Below are positions 3,643 through 30,373 of a stretch of 33,626 nt of DNA, one piece after another. The position numbers and the translations under genes are program-made. This DNA is from a virus. Taxonomy: Duplodnaviria > Caudoviricetes. The DNA is taken from positions 1 to 33,626 of the IMG/VR virus record IMGVR_UViG_3300025381_000060; one strand, given 5' to 3'. The stretch's first letter is position 1. Each line of letters opens with the position of its first letter. The notes beneath the pieces were generated by a model. That model saw only the letters and a list, made by a program, of their open reading frames with translations. It had not been told where the DNA came from and did not search any database.

Positions 3643-4038
3643 TTAAAATTTTCCTTTGAAAGTGTTTCTTAATTCTTTGAGCTTTTTCAATCCCTCTTCC
3701 TTGACACGAGCTAGCTCATTGGGGTCAACAGGTGTTGGATTGTGTTCGATCTGAACAACTCCCCTCAGTGGGATAGATGGGCCAGAGTTGCACAGTTCTC
3801 TGAATTTGATGGCTGACGGAATAAACTCAGAATTTAAATGTTCAATAGCAAAATCCATGGATGGCTTGTAAGTGAGGAAGCCACCAATCTGCTCTTTCCA
3901 AACTTCACGAACGATTGATGAGTCAACACCGTCGAAATGTCTCATAAATGAAGCACCGTAGATTGCACCCATCTTGGTGAAAATGTAGTCAAGACCATCG
4001 TCTAGTGAGCAAAAGTTATCATCCAAGTAATTTGACAT
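3643..4038 (-). CDS. replication protein P-like helicase loader
   Basis: Lies immediately after the initiator; IFTKMGAIYGASF...W...PSAIKFRELC resembles lambdoid P-type loaders. Confidence 0.6.
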   Translation of the reverse strand: MSNYLDDNFCSLDDGLDYIFTKMGAIYGASFMRHFDGVDSSIVREVWKEQIGGFLTYKPSMDFAIEHLNSEFIPSAIKFRELCNSGPSIPLRGVVQIEHNPTPVDPNELARVKEEGLKKLKELRNTFKGKF

Positions 4039-4774
4039 TTCCATCTCCCTTAATCAATCCACGAGTCAATCCAGCCATTACACGCTGATTCATCTGACCT
4101 TGTTTAGTCAAACCAGCGTTCTGTTCCTGCATCTGCTTCTCGTACCAAGCAGTCTTGAATGCCGCCCAATTGCTTAGGCAACAGTACTCAATACCTTGTT
4201 GGTCAGAAAGATTGGACTTGCGGAACTCAGCTTGTATTTGTCCCCAAGCAGTTTCGGTCAAAGGTAGACCTTTGGTTTTTCTGATGACCAACCAATCATT
4301 CCAAACTTGTTCAGTGACTGTGGGCGGACAGGCAACGACAGTTGCCTTCTCTCTCTTTGGTTTATGGTTATTGGTTATTGGTTCTTGGTTTATGGTTAAT
4401 GGTTTATGGTTAGGTGGAGGTTCGTCCACGGTTCGTGCACCATTCGTTATCTTTTCTTTACGCTTCGCCTCTCTTTCTATAGCGATTCGTTTGTTTGTCT
4501 CAGCATTGGCATGGTAATTATTCAGCTCTTCAACAATACGTGATTGGACATATCGACCATCTTCAAGCGTAAAAAATTTCTTCAAAACAAACTCAACTGC
4601 CTCAATTTCCTGTTGAGTTGAAGCCCAAGTCCATTCAATGGCTTGATCCATAGTTGGAAAGATTTCACGGTCATAACACGCATCAATAAGAAGCGTGTAC
4701 GCTCCATGTTGAAGCATGGTCAATCGACCTGCTTTTTTGGCGTAATCGCCTAAATTTCGTTTGTAGTAATGCAT
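4019..4774 (-). CDS. phage replication initiator, YdaU/DUF1376 family
   Basis: MHYYKRNLGDYAKKAGRLTMLQHGAYTLLIDACY N-terminus; internal iteron-like repeats; C-terminal W.DWL..RK domain. Confidence 0.85.
   Translation of the reverse strand: MHYYKRNLGDYAKKAGRLTMLQHGAYTLLIDACYDREIFPTMDQAIEWTWASTQQEIEAVEFVLKKFFTLEDGRYVQSRIVEELNNYHANAETNKRIAIEREAKRKEKITNGARTVDEPPPNHKPLTINQEPITNNHKPKREKATVVACPPTVTEQVWNDWLVIRKTKGLPLTETAWGQIQAEFRKSNLSDQQGIEYCCLSNWAAFKTAWYEKQMQEQNAGLTKQGQMNQRVMAGLTRGLIKGDGNVKLLG
4358..4451. repeat. putative replication origin inside the initiator gene
   Basis: Eight tandem heptamers TGGTTNN (4358-4413) next to three 11-bp repeats GGTTCGTCCAC / GGTTCGTGCAC / CATTCGTTATC (4419-4451). 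Confidence 0.7.
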
Positions 4775-4809
4775 AGATTTTTAGACCCAAAACAAGACCC
4801 TGAAAAAAG

Positions 4810-4876
4810 GAAACCTCGGCAGGAGGGGTCTAAACTCTTTTCGGTGGGATAGCTACCCCCCACCTAGCCGTGTTTC
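4810..4876 (-). ncRNA. C4-antisense-like structured RNA
   Basis: Three-way junction: closing stem GAAAC.CGGC.AG / CT.GCCG..GTTTC, hairpin GTGGG..GTAGCT..CCCAC, CGAAAA junction, hairpin GAG-TTTAGACCC-CTC; loop complements lie just downstream. Confidence 0.7.
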
Positions 4877-4881
4877 AACAA

Positions 4882-4911
4882 ATTGTACTACTGAAAGAAG
4901 GCTGGTAACAA
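4882..4911 (-). promoter_or_regulatory. promoter for the C4-like RNA and replication genes
   Basis: TTGTTA(4911-4906)-N18-TACAAT(4887-4882); the predicted start coincides with the RNA's 5' stem. Confidence 0.55.
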
Positions 4912-5088
4912 ATCTTTTCTAGTGACTAACCCTATAGTCGCTTCCTCAATCCTTATTGCCAGTTTGGGAGATGGGTTGCGTTTTCCATGGATTATCAATG
5001 ACAACCATGTGGTACTGATACCCAAATAGTCAGCCATCTCTTTGACCGCTCCTAGCGGCTCTTCTTTAAAGTATTCTTCCAAAGTCAT
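4888..5088 (-). CDS. Cro-like (YdaS/Cro family) HTH regulator
   Basis: 66 aa from MTLEEYF (AAGGA RBS); EMADYLGISTTWLSLIIHGKRNPSPKLAIRIEEATIGLVTRKDLLP is the YdaS/Cro signature. Confidence 0.85.
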   Translation of the reverse strand: MTLEEYFKEEPLGAVKEMADYLGISTTWLSLIIHGKRNPSPKLAIRIEEATIGLVTRKDLLPAFFQ

Positions 5089-5107
5089 TTTTTTTATCCT
5101 TGTGTGC

Positions 5108-5325
5108 TGTTGGTGTCCTGCCTTGAACATTAACGCAGGTTGCCAGTCTCAGGCTTTCGCCACACCAACACGGCTGGAGACTGCACTTAAAGTCGGAACG
5201 CGTCCCACAGCTATGCATCGCTTCAATCCCCATGCGTCTTGGTGTTGGCGTTCACATAAAGCAGTGACGAGGTTGCACAACACTTCTAAGAATTGCCCTC
5301 ACGGCGCTAACCCGCTTCGCCAACA
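5108..5325 (-). ncRNA. structured RNA leader of three interlocking stem-loop units
   Basis: Stems TGTTGGCG/CGCCAACA (5243-5325), CCAAGACG/CGTGTTGG plus TGGGGATTG/CAGTCTCCA (5165-5242), and TGTTGGTGT/ACACCAACA enclosing GGC-GAAA-GCC and CCTGC/GCAGG (5108-5170). GC-richer than its flanks and begins at the predicted transcription start. Confidence 0.65.
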
Positions 5326-5658: not shown

Positions 5659-5750
5659 ACGAACATAAATTTTTTGAACTTTTTTCGCGTGTGATCTTTT
5701 TGATTGCACTTGTAGTAATTTTCTTTGATTTAACTTTTTGGAGACCATGA
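5655..5750 (+). CDS. small membrane peptide (31 aa)
   Basis: Not in the ORF track; MNEHKFFELFSRVIFLIALVVIFFDLTFWRP with ATGA overlaps at both ends. Confidence 0.65.
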   Translation: MNEHKFFELFSRVIFLIALVVIFFDLTFWRP

Positions 5751-5965
5751 TGGACAAAAAAACACAAGATGACAACATTAAAAATTTAGATTTAAACGCA
5801 AAAATAAATCGTTTTTTATTGTTGGACAACATAACAAAAATCAGTCATTTAACAGATAAATCAGAAGGTGATTTGTTAAATACAAAGAATCTTGGGAAAG
5901 TATTTGTTCAGCAAATCAAAACTGCATTAAATCAACGTGGATTGAAATTAAGGGGACAGCAATGA
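5747..5965 (+). CDS. stand-alone RNA polymerase alpha-subunit C-terminal domain-like protein
   Basis: Aligns without gaps to RpoA CTD: NLDL......L....I..I..L....E.DLL.T.NLGK.....IK..L..RGL.L. Confidence 0.8.
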   Translation: MMDKKTQDDNIKNLDLNAKINRFLLLDNITKISHLTDKSEGDLLNTKNLGKVFVQQIKTALNQRGLKLRGQQ

Positions 5966-25034: not shown

Positions 25035-25934
25035 TTAGAATGTGATTGAACCTGATGCTGTGAATGTGTAGATGTAATACCCATTAGCCGTGGTTTGTGT
25101 TGTTCCTGAACCTGTTGTGGATGCGGCTAGTTTATAGGTGTTGGGGTAACGGATTATGACAATACCTGAACCACCTGCGGCTCCTGTTGCAGGCCCATTA
25201 AACCCACCTGAACCACCACCACCACCTCCAGTATTAGCAGTTCCAGCAGTAGCATTAGATGAATCACCACCTCCATTACCTCCACCCCCAACACCACCCC
25301 TTCCGTAAGTGGTTGTTTGATTTCCAATACCTCCACCACCACCGCCAGCATAAGCCGTTACTGTGCCTGAAATAGAACTTGCAATTCCTGCACCCCCATT
25401 ACCAGCTATTGATGTTGCTGGCAATCCAACTGTTCCAGCACCACCACCACCACCATTTACATAATTATTTGAACTTCCACCAGTACCGCCAGCGTTTCCT
25501 TGGCCTGAAATACCTGCACCACCAGATGTTTGTCCAGCATCCCATCTGCCACCGCCTCCGCCAGAACCACCAGAGCTACCAGCAGTTGCATAACCTTGCC
25601 CACCACCCCCACCTGATGCTACAAAATTTCCTGTGGTCGCGCTTGATGATGTAGCTAATAAAACTGAATTTCCACCAGTACCTGCATTACTTGCTGTAGT
25701 TCCTCCTGTGCCACCAGCACCAACAGTAACCCAACATTGAATTCCTTGCGTTATGGAAGAAAACCCAGAAAGCAAACCACCTGCACCGCCACCCCCGCCA
25801 TTAGCATAACCACCACCACCGCCACCAGCAACCACAAGGTACTCAACAACAGGAGGGCTAATTCCACTCCAATTCTGTGCTTTGACAGCTTGACTTACTT
25901 GAGATAGCGTCCAGACTCCAGAATACTGCGCCAT
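25035..25934 (-). CDS. Gly-rich adhesin-like virion protein, paralog 4
   Basis: Start MAQYSGVWTL after GGAG; VEYLVVAGGGGGG ... GGSGIVIIRYP ... YTFTASGSITF. Confidence 0.8.
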   Translation of the reverse strand: MAQYSGVWTLSQVSQAVKAQNWSGISPPVVEYLVVAGGGGGGYANGGGGGAGGLLSGFSSITQGIQCWVTVGAGGTGGTTASNAGTGGNSVLLATSSSATTGNFVASGGGGGQGYATAGSSGGSGGGGGRWDAGQTSGGAGISGQGNAGGTGGSSNNYVNGGGGGAGTVGLPATSIAGNGGAGIASSISGTVTAYAGGGGGGIGNQTTTYGRGGVGGGGNGGGDSSNATAGTANTGGGGGGSGGFNGPATGAAGGSGIVIIRYPNTYKLAASTTGSGTTQTTANGYYIYTFTASGSITF

Positions 25935-25935
25935 A

Positions 25936-26403
25936 TTAGGCTCCAGTTGAAGGTGTAGGTGTAACTTCAGGTGTAGGTGTTGGGGTGGGTGTAACTTCAG
26001 GAGTTGGTGTAGGAGTGGCTTCAACCACAGGAGTTACATCAACCCAAGCCTTTGTAGGCTCATCCCATGCATAGATTTTGCCTTCATGGACAGGCATAGC
26101 AACAGGATTAACCCATTGCCATGTTGGTGCGCCAATTGTGAATGAATCACAGGTAACACCATTTCTGTCTACTGGACGTGGAGCATGGAAAACATCGTTG
26201 TTTTTGTCGTAAACGTAACCAATACCAGCGTAGTTTGCTCTCAAAGGAGTACCGCCACCATTGTGTACGCCACCATGAGTGTTATAGCTTGTTTGCACCC
26301 ACTCAGAAGGGTCACCCCAGTGTCCAAGTGCAAGTGTTTCTGCTTCGATAACAATGACGTTATCTACGATACCTTGTGAATTAACGTGAGCAAAGTGAGA
26401 CAT
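25936..26403 (-). CDS. companion (assembly/chaperone-like) protein of the Gly-rich cluster with Pro-Thr tail
   Basis: MSHFAHV...WVQTSYN...RANYAGIGYVYD...WDE..KAW; (PT)n C-terminus. Confidence 0.7.
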   Translation of the reverse strand: MSHFAHVNSQGIVDNVIVIEAETLALGHWGDPSEWVQTSYNTHGGVHNGGGTPLRANYAGIGYVYDKNNDVFHAPRPVDRNGVTCDSFTIGAPTWQWVNPVAMPVHEGKIYAWDEPTKAWVDVTPVVEATPTPTPEVTPTPTPTPEVTPTPSTGA

Positions 26404-26413
26404 TTAAAACTCC

Positions 26414-27280
26414 TTAAAAAGTAATTGTGCCTGAACTTGTCCAGACGTAAATTTGATAACCATTATTGTAATAAACCTGTGGTGTAGACGCTCCACCAAA
26501 TGAGGAAGGAGGAGCACAGTTAGCAGGGTAGCGAATAATGACTATGCCTGATCCTCCATTGCCAGCAGGTCCTAAATTTCCACTTGCTGCACCTCCTCCA
26601 GAACCAGTATTGGCAATAGCACTTGTAGCAAGCAAGGTAGTATTCCAGCCACCATTACCACCACCAGAATTCCCCAACCCAAAGGTAGTTCCACCATCAG
26701 TACCACCGCCACCGCCACCTGCATAAAAAACTCTTGAGCCTGTAATTGTTGAGCAGGTTCCTGCTCCTCCATTACCAGGTTGTCCAGTTGTTGCTGCGCT
26801 ACCAACACTTCCAGAACCACCACCGCCACCACCATAAGTTGGCCCGCTATAAGTTCCACCTACCCCACCTGCATAGCCTTGACCTGATGTTCCAGAACCA
26901 GCAGTAAATGCTCCACCGCTATAACCTCCACCTCCACCAGAACCACCTGATGAACCAGCAGAAGAAAATCCACCACCGCCACCACCACCAGTTGCAGTTA
27001 CAGATGAAAATACTGAATTTGAACCATTAGTTCCATTTAATGCTGAACCTCCAGTAGTAGAACTTCCTGCACCTCCACTGCCTACAGTAACAGTTAAAGA
27101 TGAACCAGCGATTACAGCAAAGTTATTTGCAGTTAATAAACCACCAGCTCCACCACCTCCATCATAGCCACCACCCCCACCTCCACCTGCCACAACCAAA
27201 TACTCTACAGTTGCAGTAGGCAAAGATGTCAAAGGGTTTAATGTTCCTGTGATGATTCCGCCGATATATGATTGACTCAT
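26414..27280 (-). CDS. Gly-rich adhesin-like virion protein, paralog 3
   Basis: Same VEYLVVAGGG ... GSGIVIIRYP ... SGTITF framework. Confidence 0.8.
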   Translation of the reverse strand: MSQSYIGGIITGTLNPLTSLPTATVEYLVVAGGGGGGGYDGGGGAGGLLTANNFAVIAGSSLTVTVGSGGAGSSTTGGSALNGTNGSNSVFSSVTATGGGGGGGFSSAGSSGGSGGGGGYSGGAFTAGSGTSGQGYAGGVGGTYSGPTYGGGGGGSGSVGSAATTGQPGNGGAGTCSTITGSRVFYAGGGGGGTDGGTTFGLGNSGGGNGGWNTTLLATSAIANTGSGGGAASGNLGPAGNGGSGIVIIRYPANCAPPSSFGGASTPQVYYNNGYQIYVWTSSGTITF

Positions 27281-27289
27281 TTTTATTCC

Positions 27290-29491
27290 TTAGAACGTCA
27301 CAGTTCCGCTACCAGTCCAAGTGTACACACGATTCTTGTATCCTAGTCCTGTTGCAAATGGGGATAGTTGGCTCCAAGGAGCTGAAACAGAAATTGAAGA
27401 AGTAGGGGAAAAAGAATTAGGTGATGAATCTTGCAAATATGCTCCTGATACACTATTCAATAACAACGATGTTCCTGAAATAGAAGTCAATGGAATTGTG
27501 CTAGGTGTGAAAGAACTTGTATATAAACAAGTTCCTTTGATAATTCTTAAATTAGTTATATAACCAGAATACCAGCCATTTGCTCCATCCCAAGGTGAAT
27601 CTCCTACACAAGTCCCACCTTGACCAAAATCATATAAACTTGTATCAGTTGTTCCTGTTTTTTCTAAAAAACCATTGATAAATAAACGAATAATATTACT
27701 ACTATCTCTTGTTGCCGCTATGTGATTCCATGTATTTGCAATAAGATTATTTGTTGAATAAACTGCTGATGTACTATCATGAGAAACATTGCCAATTCCA
27801 ACTTTACTTGCTAATGCACTTAAAGCTGATGTTCCCCAAACTCTAATAAAAGAAGCATTATTAGAAAAAGTATCATTTGAACCAATAATATTTTGATAAG
27901 GTGGAGATGAGCCATTCCAATAAACCCAGCATTCAATTGTAAATTGACCACTTAAACTCATGGCAGATGATGACGCATATGTAACTTTGTTACTAGAACC
28001 ATTAAAGTTCATACTACCACTGCCACTTGTAGAAGCAGTATATGTTCCTGTCAATGCTGATGGTGCGTTATAGGTATCTGGGTAAGAAATGATGACGATG
28101 CCTGATCCGCCTGTGCCACCACCCCAAACCGTTCCATTAAATCCACCGCCACCTCCTCCACCACCTGTATTAGTAGTTCCTGAACCACCAGCGGCAGTAT
28201 TATTTCCTGTCCCACCACCACCTACACCACCAATACCAAAAGTTGAAGAACTTGCTGATGGAGAACCACCACCTCCTCCAGCATATGTAGTAACTGTTCC
28301 AGATATTGCCGATGCTACACCAGCGCCTCCGTTACCTGGCACAAGCGATCTAGCATTTAATCCGACAGTTCCTGCTCCTCCACCACCTCCACCCATACCC
28401 GCATTACCACCGCCAGCATAGCCAGTCCCACCAGCATTACCTTGATTTGCAGTACCTTGACCAACCGCAGATATTGATCCACTATCATTTAATCCGCCAC
28501 CACCACCTGAACCACCAGCTAATCCATTTGTAGGTGTAGATGAGTTCCATGAAGAACCTCCTCCACCACCTATAGATGTAATATTTGCAAAAACAGAATT
28601 GTTACCAGAGGTTCCTGTACCGCTAGGAGTTGCACCTGCACCTCCACTGCCAACAGTTACAGTTACAGATACGCCTGCTGTTACATTTGATATTCCTTGT
28701 AACAATCCTCCAGCTCCTCCACCAGAGCCATCATTTGATCCACCCCCACCACCACCTGCTACAACAAGGTATTCAACTGCGGGGGTTGCGTATGATGAAT
28801 TGCCAGTAAATGGAAATGCTTGTTGAGTAGTAACAGAACCGTTATTTGTAATTGACAAAGCATTACTTGAGTTATCAACAATTGTTGAATTTTGTAATGT
28901 CAGTATTGCTGTGTTTGTAATATTGCTTAATGGAGATGATGAAGGAGTAAAGTTAGATGTGTATAAGCAAGTACCATTTAAAATTCTAAAGTTTGATAAT
29001 AAACCATTACATCCACCATCAATTGCTCCATTGTAATACTCAACGCCAAGTCTTAATGTACTTGAAAAAGCATTGCTATTTGTTGCAGTAGTTCCATTTG
29101 ATGTGCCATTGATGAACATTCTTATTACGTTACTTGCATCCCTTGTAATAGCAACGTAAGTCCAAACATAAGGATTGGTTGATGTATTTTGCAATAAAGT
29201 TGCATTATTGGTATAAAGTTGATTAAGCGTACCGCCTGTACCAATATAAAATTCTAATCCTGTGGAAGTATTAACATCACCCAAAGTAAAATAACTTGAG
29301 TTGCCTGTTGTGTTTCTATAGTACCAAAATTCAATTGTAAATTGACCAGACAAAGTTGCTGGCAATGTTGCTTGCAAATATTGAGATAAGCTACCTGTTG
29401 GGAATGAACCAGCATAAGTAGATGGATTACTCCAAGCCTTCTGTATCAAGCCTTGTAACTGCTGTTTGAGAGTGAATAGACCTTGTGCCAT
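27290..29491 (-). CDS. Gly-rich adhesin-like protein with two LamG/ConA-like lectin domains, paralog 2
   Basis: FTIEFWYY / FTIECWVYW, W.(Y/H).A.TRD....R.FING and SNFRILNGTCLYTSNFTP / TNLRIIKGTCLYTSSFTP motifs flank the Gly-rich core. Confidence 0.85.
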   Translation of the reverse strand: MAQGLFTLKQQLQGLIQKAWSNPSTYAGSFPTGSLSQYLQATLPATLSGQFTIEFWYYRNTTGNSSYFTLGDVNTSTGLEFYIGTGGTLNQLYTNNATLLQNTSTNPYVWTYVAITRDASNVIRMFINGTSNGTTATNSNAFSSTLRLGVEYYNGAIDGGCNGLLSNFRILNGTCLYTSNFTPSSSPLSNITNTAILTLQNSTIVDNSSNALSITNNGSVTTQQAFPFTGNSSYATPAVEYLVVAGGGGGGSNDGSGGGAGGLLQGISNVTAGVSVTVTVGSGGAGATPSGTGTSGNNSVFANITSIGGGGGSSWNSSTPTNGLAGGSGGGGGLNDSGSISAVGQGTANQGNAGGTGYAGGGNAGMGGGGGGAGTVGLNARSLVPGNGGAGVASAISGTVTTYAGGGGGSPSASSSTFGIGGVGGGGTGNNTAAGGSGTTNTGGGGGGGGFNGTVWGGGTGGSGIVIISYPDTYNAPSALTGTYTASTSGSGSMNFNGSSNKVTYASSSAMSLSGQFTIECWVYWNGSSPPYQNIIGSNDTFSNNASFIRVWGTSALSALASKVGIGNVSHDSTSAVYSTNNLIANTWNHIAATRDSSNIIRLFINGFLEKTGTTDTSLYDFGQGGTCVGDSPWDGANGWYSGYITNLRIIKGTCLYTSSFTPSTIPLTSISGTSLLLNSVSGAYLQDSSPNSFSPTSSISVSAPWSQLSPFATGLGYKNRVYTWTGSGTVTF

Positions 29492-29500
29492 TTTTTGTTC

Positions 29501-30373
29501 TCAGAATGTGATTGTGCCACTGGCTTTAAAAACATAGACGTTATAACCAAGAGCTTGATAATATGTGGGTGAGCCTGTTGTTGATGTGGCTTGGGATAGA
29601 TAGGAAGGGTATCTGATGACTACGATTCCTGAACCGCCTGCTCCACCTGTTTCAGATGATCCACTACCTGAACCACCACCTCCACCACCACCATTGCCAG
29701 TATTTGCAAGACCATTGATTCCAGGATTGCTTCCAGAATCTCCGTTGCCACCATTACCATTATTACCAGAGCCTGATGCTCCACCAAGACCAGGTGTTCC
29801 TGTGCGAACACCACCGCCACCTCCAGCCGCATAAATAGCAGGAGAACCAGTTATAGAACTACCCAAACCTGCGCCACCATTACCAGCCAAATTTACACCA
29901 GCATTACCACCAGCAGAGCCTGCACCGCCTCCTCCACCACAAGAATACCCATTGCCAGATGTTGAGGCATTACCCCCTGCATTTCCTTGCCCAGATGTTC
30001 CTGCGCCTCCAGTTTGTGCAGTTCCAGAACTTCCTGCTCCTCCAGCAGAACCACCACCAGAGCTATTGGAAGCATATGCACCAGCACCACCGCCAATTGC
30101 AGTTATTGATCCAAAAACAGAGTTTGCTCCTTGTGATCCACCAGACCCAGCAGAAGCAGTAGATGCTCCAGCACCAACAGTCACAGTAATTGATGATCCT
30201 ATGGTTACAGAATAGCCTGTTGCAGTTAGTAATCCACCAGCGCCACCGCCCCCACCCCAATAAGACGAACCAGAACCACCTCCAGCGACAACAAGATACT
30301 CTACTGTTTGAACAGGGTAGTTCAGCCCATTGTATTGAGCAGAGATGAAACCGCCTTGATGAGTCAAACTCAT
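29501..30373 (-). CDS. Gly-rich adhesin-like virion protein, paralog 1
   Basis: Same framework: VEYLVVAGGG ... GGSGIVVIRYP ... VFKASGTITF. Confidence 0.8.
   Translation of the reverse strand: MSLTHQGGFISAQYNGLNYPVQTVEYLVVAGGGSGSSYWGGGGGAGGLLTATGYSVTIGSSITVTVGAGASTASAGSGGSQGANSVFGSITAIGGGAGAYASNSSGGGSAGGAGSSGTAQTGGAGTSGQGNAGGNASTSGNGYSCGGGGGAGSAGGNAGVNLAGNGGAGLGSSITGSPAIYAAGGGGGVRTGTPGLGGASGSGNNGNGGNGDSGSNPGINGLANTGNGGGGGGGSGSGSSETGGAGGSGIVVIRYPSYLSQATSTTGSPTYYQALGYNVYVFKASGTITF

Follow-up and report, generated by a model that had tools for sequence, protein, structure and literature searches.

On the minus strand of the window (by which we mean the whole stretch of 33,626 nucleotides that was analysed), a Cro/YdaS-like gene is followed by the gene of a likely replication initiator. 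The interval between them, read from 4888 to 4774, holds in this order a promoter-like site (4911-4882, reaching into the Cro-like gene), a 67-nt fold, a U-run and two boxes. The features of this region are as follows.

4888..5130, minus strand: Cro/YdaS-like helix-turn-helix gene, the upstream neighbour (PF15943, PF01381; phrog_35 transcriptional repressor); an alternative start at 5088 is possible
4882..4911, minus strand: sigma70-like promoter, -35 TTGTTA (4911-4906) and -10 TACAAT (4887-4882), with 9/12 consensus matches; it overlaps the stop codon of the Cro-like gene
4810..4876, minus strand: three-way-junction RNA of 67 nt, int-alpA type (RF02996 match; stems kept paired in relatives)
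4876-4867 with 4820-4810, minus strand: P1 stem of the 67-nt fold
4864-4843, minus strand: P2 arm of the same fold
4850..4855, minus strand: self-complementary hexamer UAGCUA in loop L2, a predicted kissing-dimer site (from its sequence and from enrichment in the family)
4842-4838, minus strand: GAAAA junction of the fold
4837-4835 with 4825-4823, minus strand: P3 stem of the fold
4826..4834, minus strand: loop L3, UUUAGACCC, the address loop, which co-varies with both boxes
4802..4809, minus strand: U-rich linker downstream of P1, perhaps a pause site or the tail of a weak terminator, variable in the family
4795..4800, minus strand: box 1, GGGUCU, 6 bp with L3, ending 20 nt before the start codon; a predicted cis decoy (pseudoknot partner)
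4780..4788, minus strand: box 2, GGGUCUAAA, 9 bp with L3, ending 5 nt before the ATG at 4774
4019..4774, minus strand: likely replication initiator of 251 aa, with an N-terminal DUF1376 and a C-terminal part like lambda O-type initiators

The initiator gene matches PF07120 in Pfam (E 9e-23) and, among the PHROG families, a primosomal protein (E 1.5e-32) and 'replication initiation O-like' (E 2.2e-16). It is from the names of these families that we infer the role and activity of the protein, for which no solved structure was found. Elsewhere in the window, a small ORF at 5738-5965 (+), lying among the early genes, matches the C-terminal domain of the RNA polymerase alpha subunit (PF03118, E 9.8e-9), and its product is a possible decoy for host transcription. 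In the tail region, a Gly_rich_2 domain is common to four adjoining genes (25035-30373, minus strand), and a gene near this cluster carries a Peptidase_S74 chaperone domain.

The intergenic RNA had been described in an earlier note on this DNA as C4-like, with a covariance-model search against C4 and c4-2 as the way to check it. Such a search gave no match at E<=10, and the label had to be abandoned: C4 (RF01695), c4-2 and c4-a1b1 are all absent at E<=10 from an all-Rfam scan over 4600-5100, C4 has 0 matches at E<=10 in the record, and the whole window gives 0 matches at Rfam gathering thresholds. Neither isrK nor PK-repZ was matched in the window scans. The best match is int-alpA (RF02996), found over its full length in the scan of 4600-5100 with 31.9 bits and an E-value of 8.7e-5 (1.4e-6 for the record), which is 3.9 bits short of the gathering cut-off of 35.8 bits. 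The alignment, which covers model positions 1-71, places the CUAG, GAAAAG and CCUG junction bases and all three stems in the window copy. Relatives in the same gene slot lie above the cut-off (L029 with 39.9 and L031 with 36.5 bits). Four elements exceed it among 20 homologous loci scanned, two of them directly before the same initiator gene, and it is reached in 23 of 50 records scanned. As the best relaxed match is RF02996, relatives pass its cut-off and C4 gives nothing, the window RNA is, on these matches, a divergent, sub-threshold int-alpA-type RNA and not C4.

Folding of the single sequence does not by itself lead to this structure. The folding z-score of the window RNA is -1.64, and the junction fold (-21.7 kcal/mol) lies 3.4 kcal/mol above an alternative (-25.1 kcal/mol) in which the G-run of P2 pairs with the C-run of L3; the junction is the predicted minimum-energy fold in 61/188 cores, the window copy not being among them. 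Because single-sequence folding favours another fold, the three-way junction rests here on comparative evidence, and the earlier proposal of such a junction stands as regards the stems, which are conserved in relatives, but not as regards the folding of the window copy. Across relatives, the stems show pairing with compensatory changes, and in P2 and P3 we counted 32 G-U against 7 A-C combinations (unfiltered matches), an excess which points to an RNA on the minus strand. All coordinates given for the RNA by the earlier note check on this strand.

Relatives came from several sources. From 193 viral loci that encode the initiator we took the best 80, and pattern scans based on the junction bases only (the loop and tail sequences were not used) gave 121 viral and 120 genome loci, which are samples of an estimated 4100 and 1500 stretches, respectively. 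A stem filter was passed by 47/80 initiator loci, 111/121 viral loci and 41/120 genome loci, and there were 187 distinct elements; the junction pattern, a regular expression, misses some variants, and most of the dropped genome loci are probably chance matches. Invariance of the junction in this sample arises by construction, but it is independently visible in the Rfam consensus. Two further scans comprised 105 and 37 loci. Judging from record titles, the genome loci which passed the filter belong to Planctomycetota, Chloroflexota, Acidobacteriota, Bacillota, Nitrospirae, Desulfobacterales, Chitinophaga, a cyanobacterium, Saccharibacteria and alpha-, beta- and gammaproteobacteria, many of these records being metagenome bins whose host labels are uncertain. 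The same architecture occurs in the cultured phages Tyrion (Enterobacter), AL (Pseudoalteromonas), BIS08P22 and Vibrio 1.198.A, and a similar stretch is present in 55 of 5426 E. coli genomes; a blastn search of the window leader against cultured phages gave no match. Two copies of the element occur in 7/50 records, and both loops differ between the copies in 7/7, which we did not count as evidence because address diversity is high anyway.

In the window, the perfect 9-bp complement between the loop and 4788-4780, 5 nt before the initiator ATG, was found just as the earlier note had reported it. Two details needed correction: the loop is UUUAGACCC at 4834-4826, and the additional C (4825) ascribed to it belongs to the P3 stem; of the second target copy placed at 4801-4795, GGGUCU (4800-4795) does pair with the loop over 6 bp, but A4801 has no partner there. 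The same note had made its reading depend on co-variation of the loop with the downstream boxes, and this is what we observed. We took one element per distinct loop (n=130) and looked for two non-overlapping Watson-Crick boxes of at least 5 and at least 4 pairs. Two boxes matching the element's own L3 were found in its own tail for 108 of the 130 distinct loops, compared with 10.9% of non-cognate pairs. The mean pairing score was 10.38 as against 6.87 after permutation (z 29.3), and in 100,000 permutations the observed mean was not attained once; the sequences counted are related and do not represent independent events, the loops nonetheless differing across many phyla. Matches of L3 to the upstream region (3/130) and to the coding region (8/130) stayed at the null level, as did matches of the P2 loop to the tail. 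The own tail was the top or tied-top partner of the loop in 52/130 cases and strictly the top one in just 26, so that related addresses cross-match. In the two further scans, near-fixed scaffolds carry different loops, with both boxes altered to match each of them. That the RNA is real and structured, and that its loop co-varies with its targets, is thereby confirmed at the level of sequence comparison.

The arrangement of the two boxes is also rather constant. L3 pairing peaks at +18 and +30/31 after the junction, and box 1 begins 12-19 nt after it in 103/108 passing elements, pairing with the 3'-most base of L3 in 93/108, as expected for a helix stacked on P3. In 97/108 elements boxes 1 and 2 share at least 4 L3 bases, and thus one loop can hold only one box at a time. 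The loop-box duplexes are nearly pure Watson-Crick, and their flanks show no G-U enrichment (35 G-U vs 45 A-C). Pairing of the GAAAAG junction with the U-run, also proposed earlier, exists in the window copy but is not a family feature, a complement of at least 5 nt being present in 17/108 elements.

The earlier note had given the RNA a promoter of its own, and comparison of relatives bears this out. Taken alone, sigma70-like consensus matches are at chance level (3 found vs 2.3 expected), but a -10 hexamer lies at the same offset, 10-18 nt before the junction, in 120/188 elements, compared with 7-16 in five control windows. In the window the predicted +1 (about 4876-4875) is the first base of P1. 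Given the conserved offset of the -10 hexamer, the transcript is predicted to start at P1, and the fold would thus make up the whole 5' leader. No intrinsic terminator was called in the window at the 3' end of the RNA, and at least 5 U within the 9 nt after P1 are found in 28/108 elements, which rules out a conserved intrinsic terminator as a family feature. The opposite strand of box 1 and the U-run (4798-4812, plus strand) resembles the consensus of the lambda boxB hairpin; since the linker varies among relatives, this likeness is probably a coincidence.

At the other end of the leader, box 2 meets the ribosome-binding site. Near the initiator start, the anti-SD sequence pairs best with the GGGU of box 2, at a weak -3.8 kcal/mol, in agreement with the earlier statement that there is no obvious SD apart from the GGGU boxes. 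Among relatives, 102 of the 104 elements which have an open frame have it start within 13 nt of box 2, and the predicted SD duplex overlaps box 2 in 82/102 and box 1 in 14/102, so the assignment of the target to the translation-initiation region of the O-like initiator holds as well. The stronger of the two sites is box 1 in 78/148 elements and box 2 in 32/148. The window copy belongs to the minority type, box 2 being the stronger one (-12.6 vs -9.4 kcal/mol for box 1), and the predicted minimum-energy fold of its leader pairs L3 with box 2.

A further property of the family, which the earlier note does not mention, concerns L2. Palindromes of at least 4 nt are present in 47/67 distinct L2 loops (shuffle mean 24.5, maximum 39) and palindromes of at least 6 nt in 23/67 (shuffle mean 4.8, maximum 12); 20/67 have no perfect 4-nt palindrome. 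L3, taken as a control, is depleted in palindromes (11/139 vs 19.8 expected). The L2 palindromes are of many different kinds across the family, the mean energy of the L2 self-duplex is -4.5 kcal/mol as against -2.3 kcal/mol for shuffles, and 14 L3 loops are each combined with two or more types of L2. The centre of the palindrome lies off the arm midpoint, i.e. off the hairpin axis, in 47 of 52 long arms, and the palindrome is thus not an extension of the stem. We read such varied palindromes as the predicted signature of kissing-loop dimers. The position of box 2 does not change with P2 length (p 0.91; either class has a median of 28), and the geometry thus bears no trace of a partner RNA reaching in.

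The earlier note supposed that the device directly gates the replication initiator; in the family, it is not confined to initiators. We scanned 102 of the 104 downstream frames, the omitted ones being one near-duplicate and one with a mis-called start. By their top PHROG matches, 31 are of the DUF1376 type (8 of them present by selection), 8 are other replication proteins, 5 form one family with a primase-like match in one member, 11 are HNH or other endonucleases, 3 are integrases, one (L121) is an antirepressor, 6 are other proteins and 37 are without a match; Pfam named 3 more among 42 rescanned. Judged by these matches, the device serves DNA-acting genes of mobile elements in general. The supposition that specificity is set by the loop sequence fared better, as the loop behaves like an exchangeable address: among 99 DUF1376-type leaders, 96/138 gene pairs at least 95% identical over their first 80 residues differ by at least 2 loop edits. 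On a tree built quickly from 82 columns, in which many forks are unresolved, six common loops require 22 changes (minimum 5, shuffled 36.0). The simplest reading of this reassortment of loops with respect to genes would be cassette exchange.

Several variants were seen among the relatives. In L018, L036, L040, L042, L048, L049, L052 and L079 (about 1181-1500) a 77-aa ORF lies between the int-alpA leader and the initiator; as it directly precedes the initiator, it suggests translational coupling. L170 (302-400) and L181 (reverse strand, same offset) hold junction variants without obvious boxes, with similar-looking genes downstream, and their L3 is itself palindromic or nearly so. Acinetobacter phage Ab105-2phi (L474:1500-1600) has a variant with an extended P3 before a Rha-family regulator. 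In Enterobacter phage Tyrion (L471:1500-1610) an ATG that has a good SD comes after the leader, about 135 nt ahead of the next gene in the annotation; at this ATG itself the record shows no gene. A different structured leader occupies the same slot before the same initiator in L013 (1380-1500), L039, L059, L069 and L071, and it occurs also in L015, L016, L065 and L066. It has a conserved closing stem, a promoter-like site, a partial consensus fold and a long variable segment whose complement lies directly ahead of a U-run. In four of its loci, those that were scanned, Rfam yielded nothing at E<=0.5.

The int-alpA motif is reportedly due to Weinberg et al. 2017 (PMC5737381). Its name does not appear in the main text of that paper (excerpts); PMC12370729 lists it as a genome annotation, and in PMC13612085 the term denotes a gene order, while C4 and c4-a1b1 RNAs are treated in PMC2864571 (excerpt). 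Literature searches, mainly of freely accessible papers, found no functional study of int-alpA/RF02996, although the supplement of the motif's source may mention loop-tail pairing or gene context, and no description of the present architecture (loop, two boxes and L2) was found in such searches. The Rfam model shares with the window RNA the three-stem fold and the CUAG/GAAAAG/CCUG junction bases over its full length, and in its consensus the loop and the 3' tail are complementary, though not drawn as paired. It ends, however, at box 1, and holds neither the loop-box pairs, nor box 2, nor an L2 dimer site, and the window copy differs from it by a long P2 of 7 bp. Rfam types the family as 'Gene; sRNA', whereas the position in the window fits a cis-acting 5' leader rather than a free sRNA.

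P1/P7 C4 (RF01695) and P4 CI are, like the RNA described here, folded phage RNAs in which a short unpaired stretch faces repeated nearby sites of the RNA's own transcript, and in both cases loop and target co-vary, giving specificity types; even the antirepressor context of C4-type systems recurs in one relative (L121). In C4 and CI, two separate unpaired segments bind two different types of target, whereas here both boxes use the same L3 bases (97/108) and the P2 loop is not matched to the tail. P4 CI has its partners on either side, seqA upstream and seqC downstream, and its pairing leads to termination (PMC4825925, excerpt), while here both sites lie downstream (108/130, compared with 3/130 upstream), and box 2 covers the ribosome site. 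Gifsy-1 IsrK, with its short and read-through isoforms, offers another likeness, since there, as predicted here, one and the same downstream sequence would be contested by the 5' part of an mRNA and by another copy of that part (PMC4825925, excerpt). It differs in that IsrK pairs over ~30 nt within an ORF and activates (PMC4825925, excerpt), as opposed to pairings of 5-9 nt at two leader boxes, and in that its short isoform is released by an intrinsic terminator, of which none was called here, a U-run being present in 28/108 elements. The pseudoknot of ColIb-P9 repZ switches translation on. In I-complex plasmids, as is probable here, pairing of a loop with a downstream sequence controls translation of an initiator, but the regulator, Inc RNA, is a separate counter-transcript (PMC10724649, excerpt); in the window, a consensus scan, which is insensitive, called no plus-strand promoter reading into the leader. 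L2, finally, resembles the HIV-1 DIS in that both are hairpin loops in which a 6-nt palindrome is preceded by purines (PMC7357161, excerpt), a likeness of form only, since the DIS serves genome packaging and the predicted L2 dimer would serve bacterial translation control.

That L3 and the boxes control translation is, in our judgement, very probable. The complete model that we prefer, namely that a second copy of an int-alpA-type leader, probably docked through L2, shuts the ribosome-binding site, is more tentative, and we give it nearly an even chance. According to this model, the promoter-like site conserved just before P1 would start the leader transcript, whose L3 is complementary to either box through the same bases, as covariation indicates. 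Since the polymerase reaches box 1 before box 2, and since the spacing between the junction and box 1 is fixed, box 1 would capture the transcript's own L3 as a pseudoknot, leaving box 2 and the ribosome site free. With rising numbers of transcripts, or of 5' fragments trimmed from them, kissing between L2 loops would supply a second L3, which would cover box 2 and block binding of the 30S subunit. The dose of a DNA-acting gene would in this way be subject to negative feedback, restricted to elements that share the L2/L3 address. The main local argument against this sign of control is the stronger box 2 of the window copy: as the minimum-energy fold pairs L3 with it, the leader would be OFF without any partner.

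A strong box 2 favours closure in cis, and the switch might operate within one molecule, L3 shifting between box 1 (ON) and box 2 (OFF) either as a timer set by folding or in response to a protein or a small ligand bound at the conserved junction, with no need for a second RNA. The promoter, the fixed distance from junction to box 1 and the mutually exclusive boxes all fit such a mechanism, and so does the finding of no trans target elsewhere in the window, where GGGTCT occurs 12 times vs 13.2 expected (a count for one hexamer in a record about 61% complete). It leaves the varied L2 palindromes unexplained, however, and provides no reason for many exchangeable addresses before near-identical genes, even if neutral cassette recombination could produce them; on the whole, we find it rather unlikely, though worth serious consideration. 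The stronger box 2 can equally be read with the opposite sign, in the manner of IsrK, the short form of which activates its own read-through transcript in trans (PMC4825925, excerpt). The L3:box 2 pairing would then shut the monomer and a second copy would open it, either by taking L3 or by moving L3 to box 1, which would amount to positive feedback or multiplicity sensing. This is hard to reconcile with box 1 being usually the stronger and the earlier site (78 vs 32 of 148) and with the lack of an isrK match, and positive feedback on nucleases or integrases would presumably be risky, so that we hold it to be improbable.

Hardly better are the prospects of the mechanism suggested in the earlier note, in which a processed or terminated, free 67-nt RNA would bind the boxes on new transcripts in trans, acting as P1 C4 and P4 CI do, with copy control or superinfection exclusion as the outcome. 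Loop-target covariation, the diversity of addresses, the antirepressor downstream of L121 and the precedent of trans-acting c4 and CI RNAs (PMC8546580 and PMC4825925, excerpts) speak in its favour, but C4, c4-2 and c4-a1b1 gave no match, no target lies upstream, one loop serves two exclusive boxes, the U-run is found in a minority, and many of the downstream genes encode nucleases, for which exclusion makes little sense. It would overlap with the dimer model if trimmed fragments were the docking partner. A very improbable explanation places everything at the level of DNA: a protein would bind the loop and both boxes as three repeats of its site (operator or iteron), and the L2 palindrome would be recognised by a protein or a methylase. 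The nearly pure Watson-Crick loop-box duplexes, whose flanks lack a G-U excess, would agree with it, yet the stems show a strand-specific G-U excess and compensatory changes, the same geometry precedes unrelated genes with more than 100 different loop sequences, and box 2 tracks the SD.

The reading of leader dimers as repressors, extended to the family, would make int-alpA leaders self-counting RNA switches across phages and mobile elements of many phyla: a decoy box would disarm the leader's own loop, L2 kissing would recognise a twin, the loop of the twin would cover the ribosome site, and the two-loop address would be swapped as a cassette. We regard this as possible, with the chances somewhat against it. 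If true, it would mean protein-free dosage control of initiators, homing nucleases and integrases. Literature searches, mainly of freely accessible papers, found no case in which a 5' leader controls translation by forming homodimers, and the anatomy of two boxes and a palindrome points to a new form of dosage control by RNA. The proposed mechanism is testable, concerns an RNA family that had been catalogued without an explanation, and is supported by comparison to an unusual degree, loop and boxes varying in step over more than 100 loop sequences; since the leader is present in cultured enterobacterial phages, it should be tractable in E. coli reporters. Should the mechanism be real, these leaders would constitute a natural set of orthogonal regulators of ~100 nt, and would offer a mobile element a compact, protein-free way to sense its own dose.
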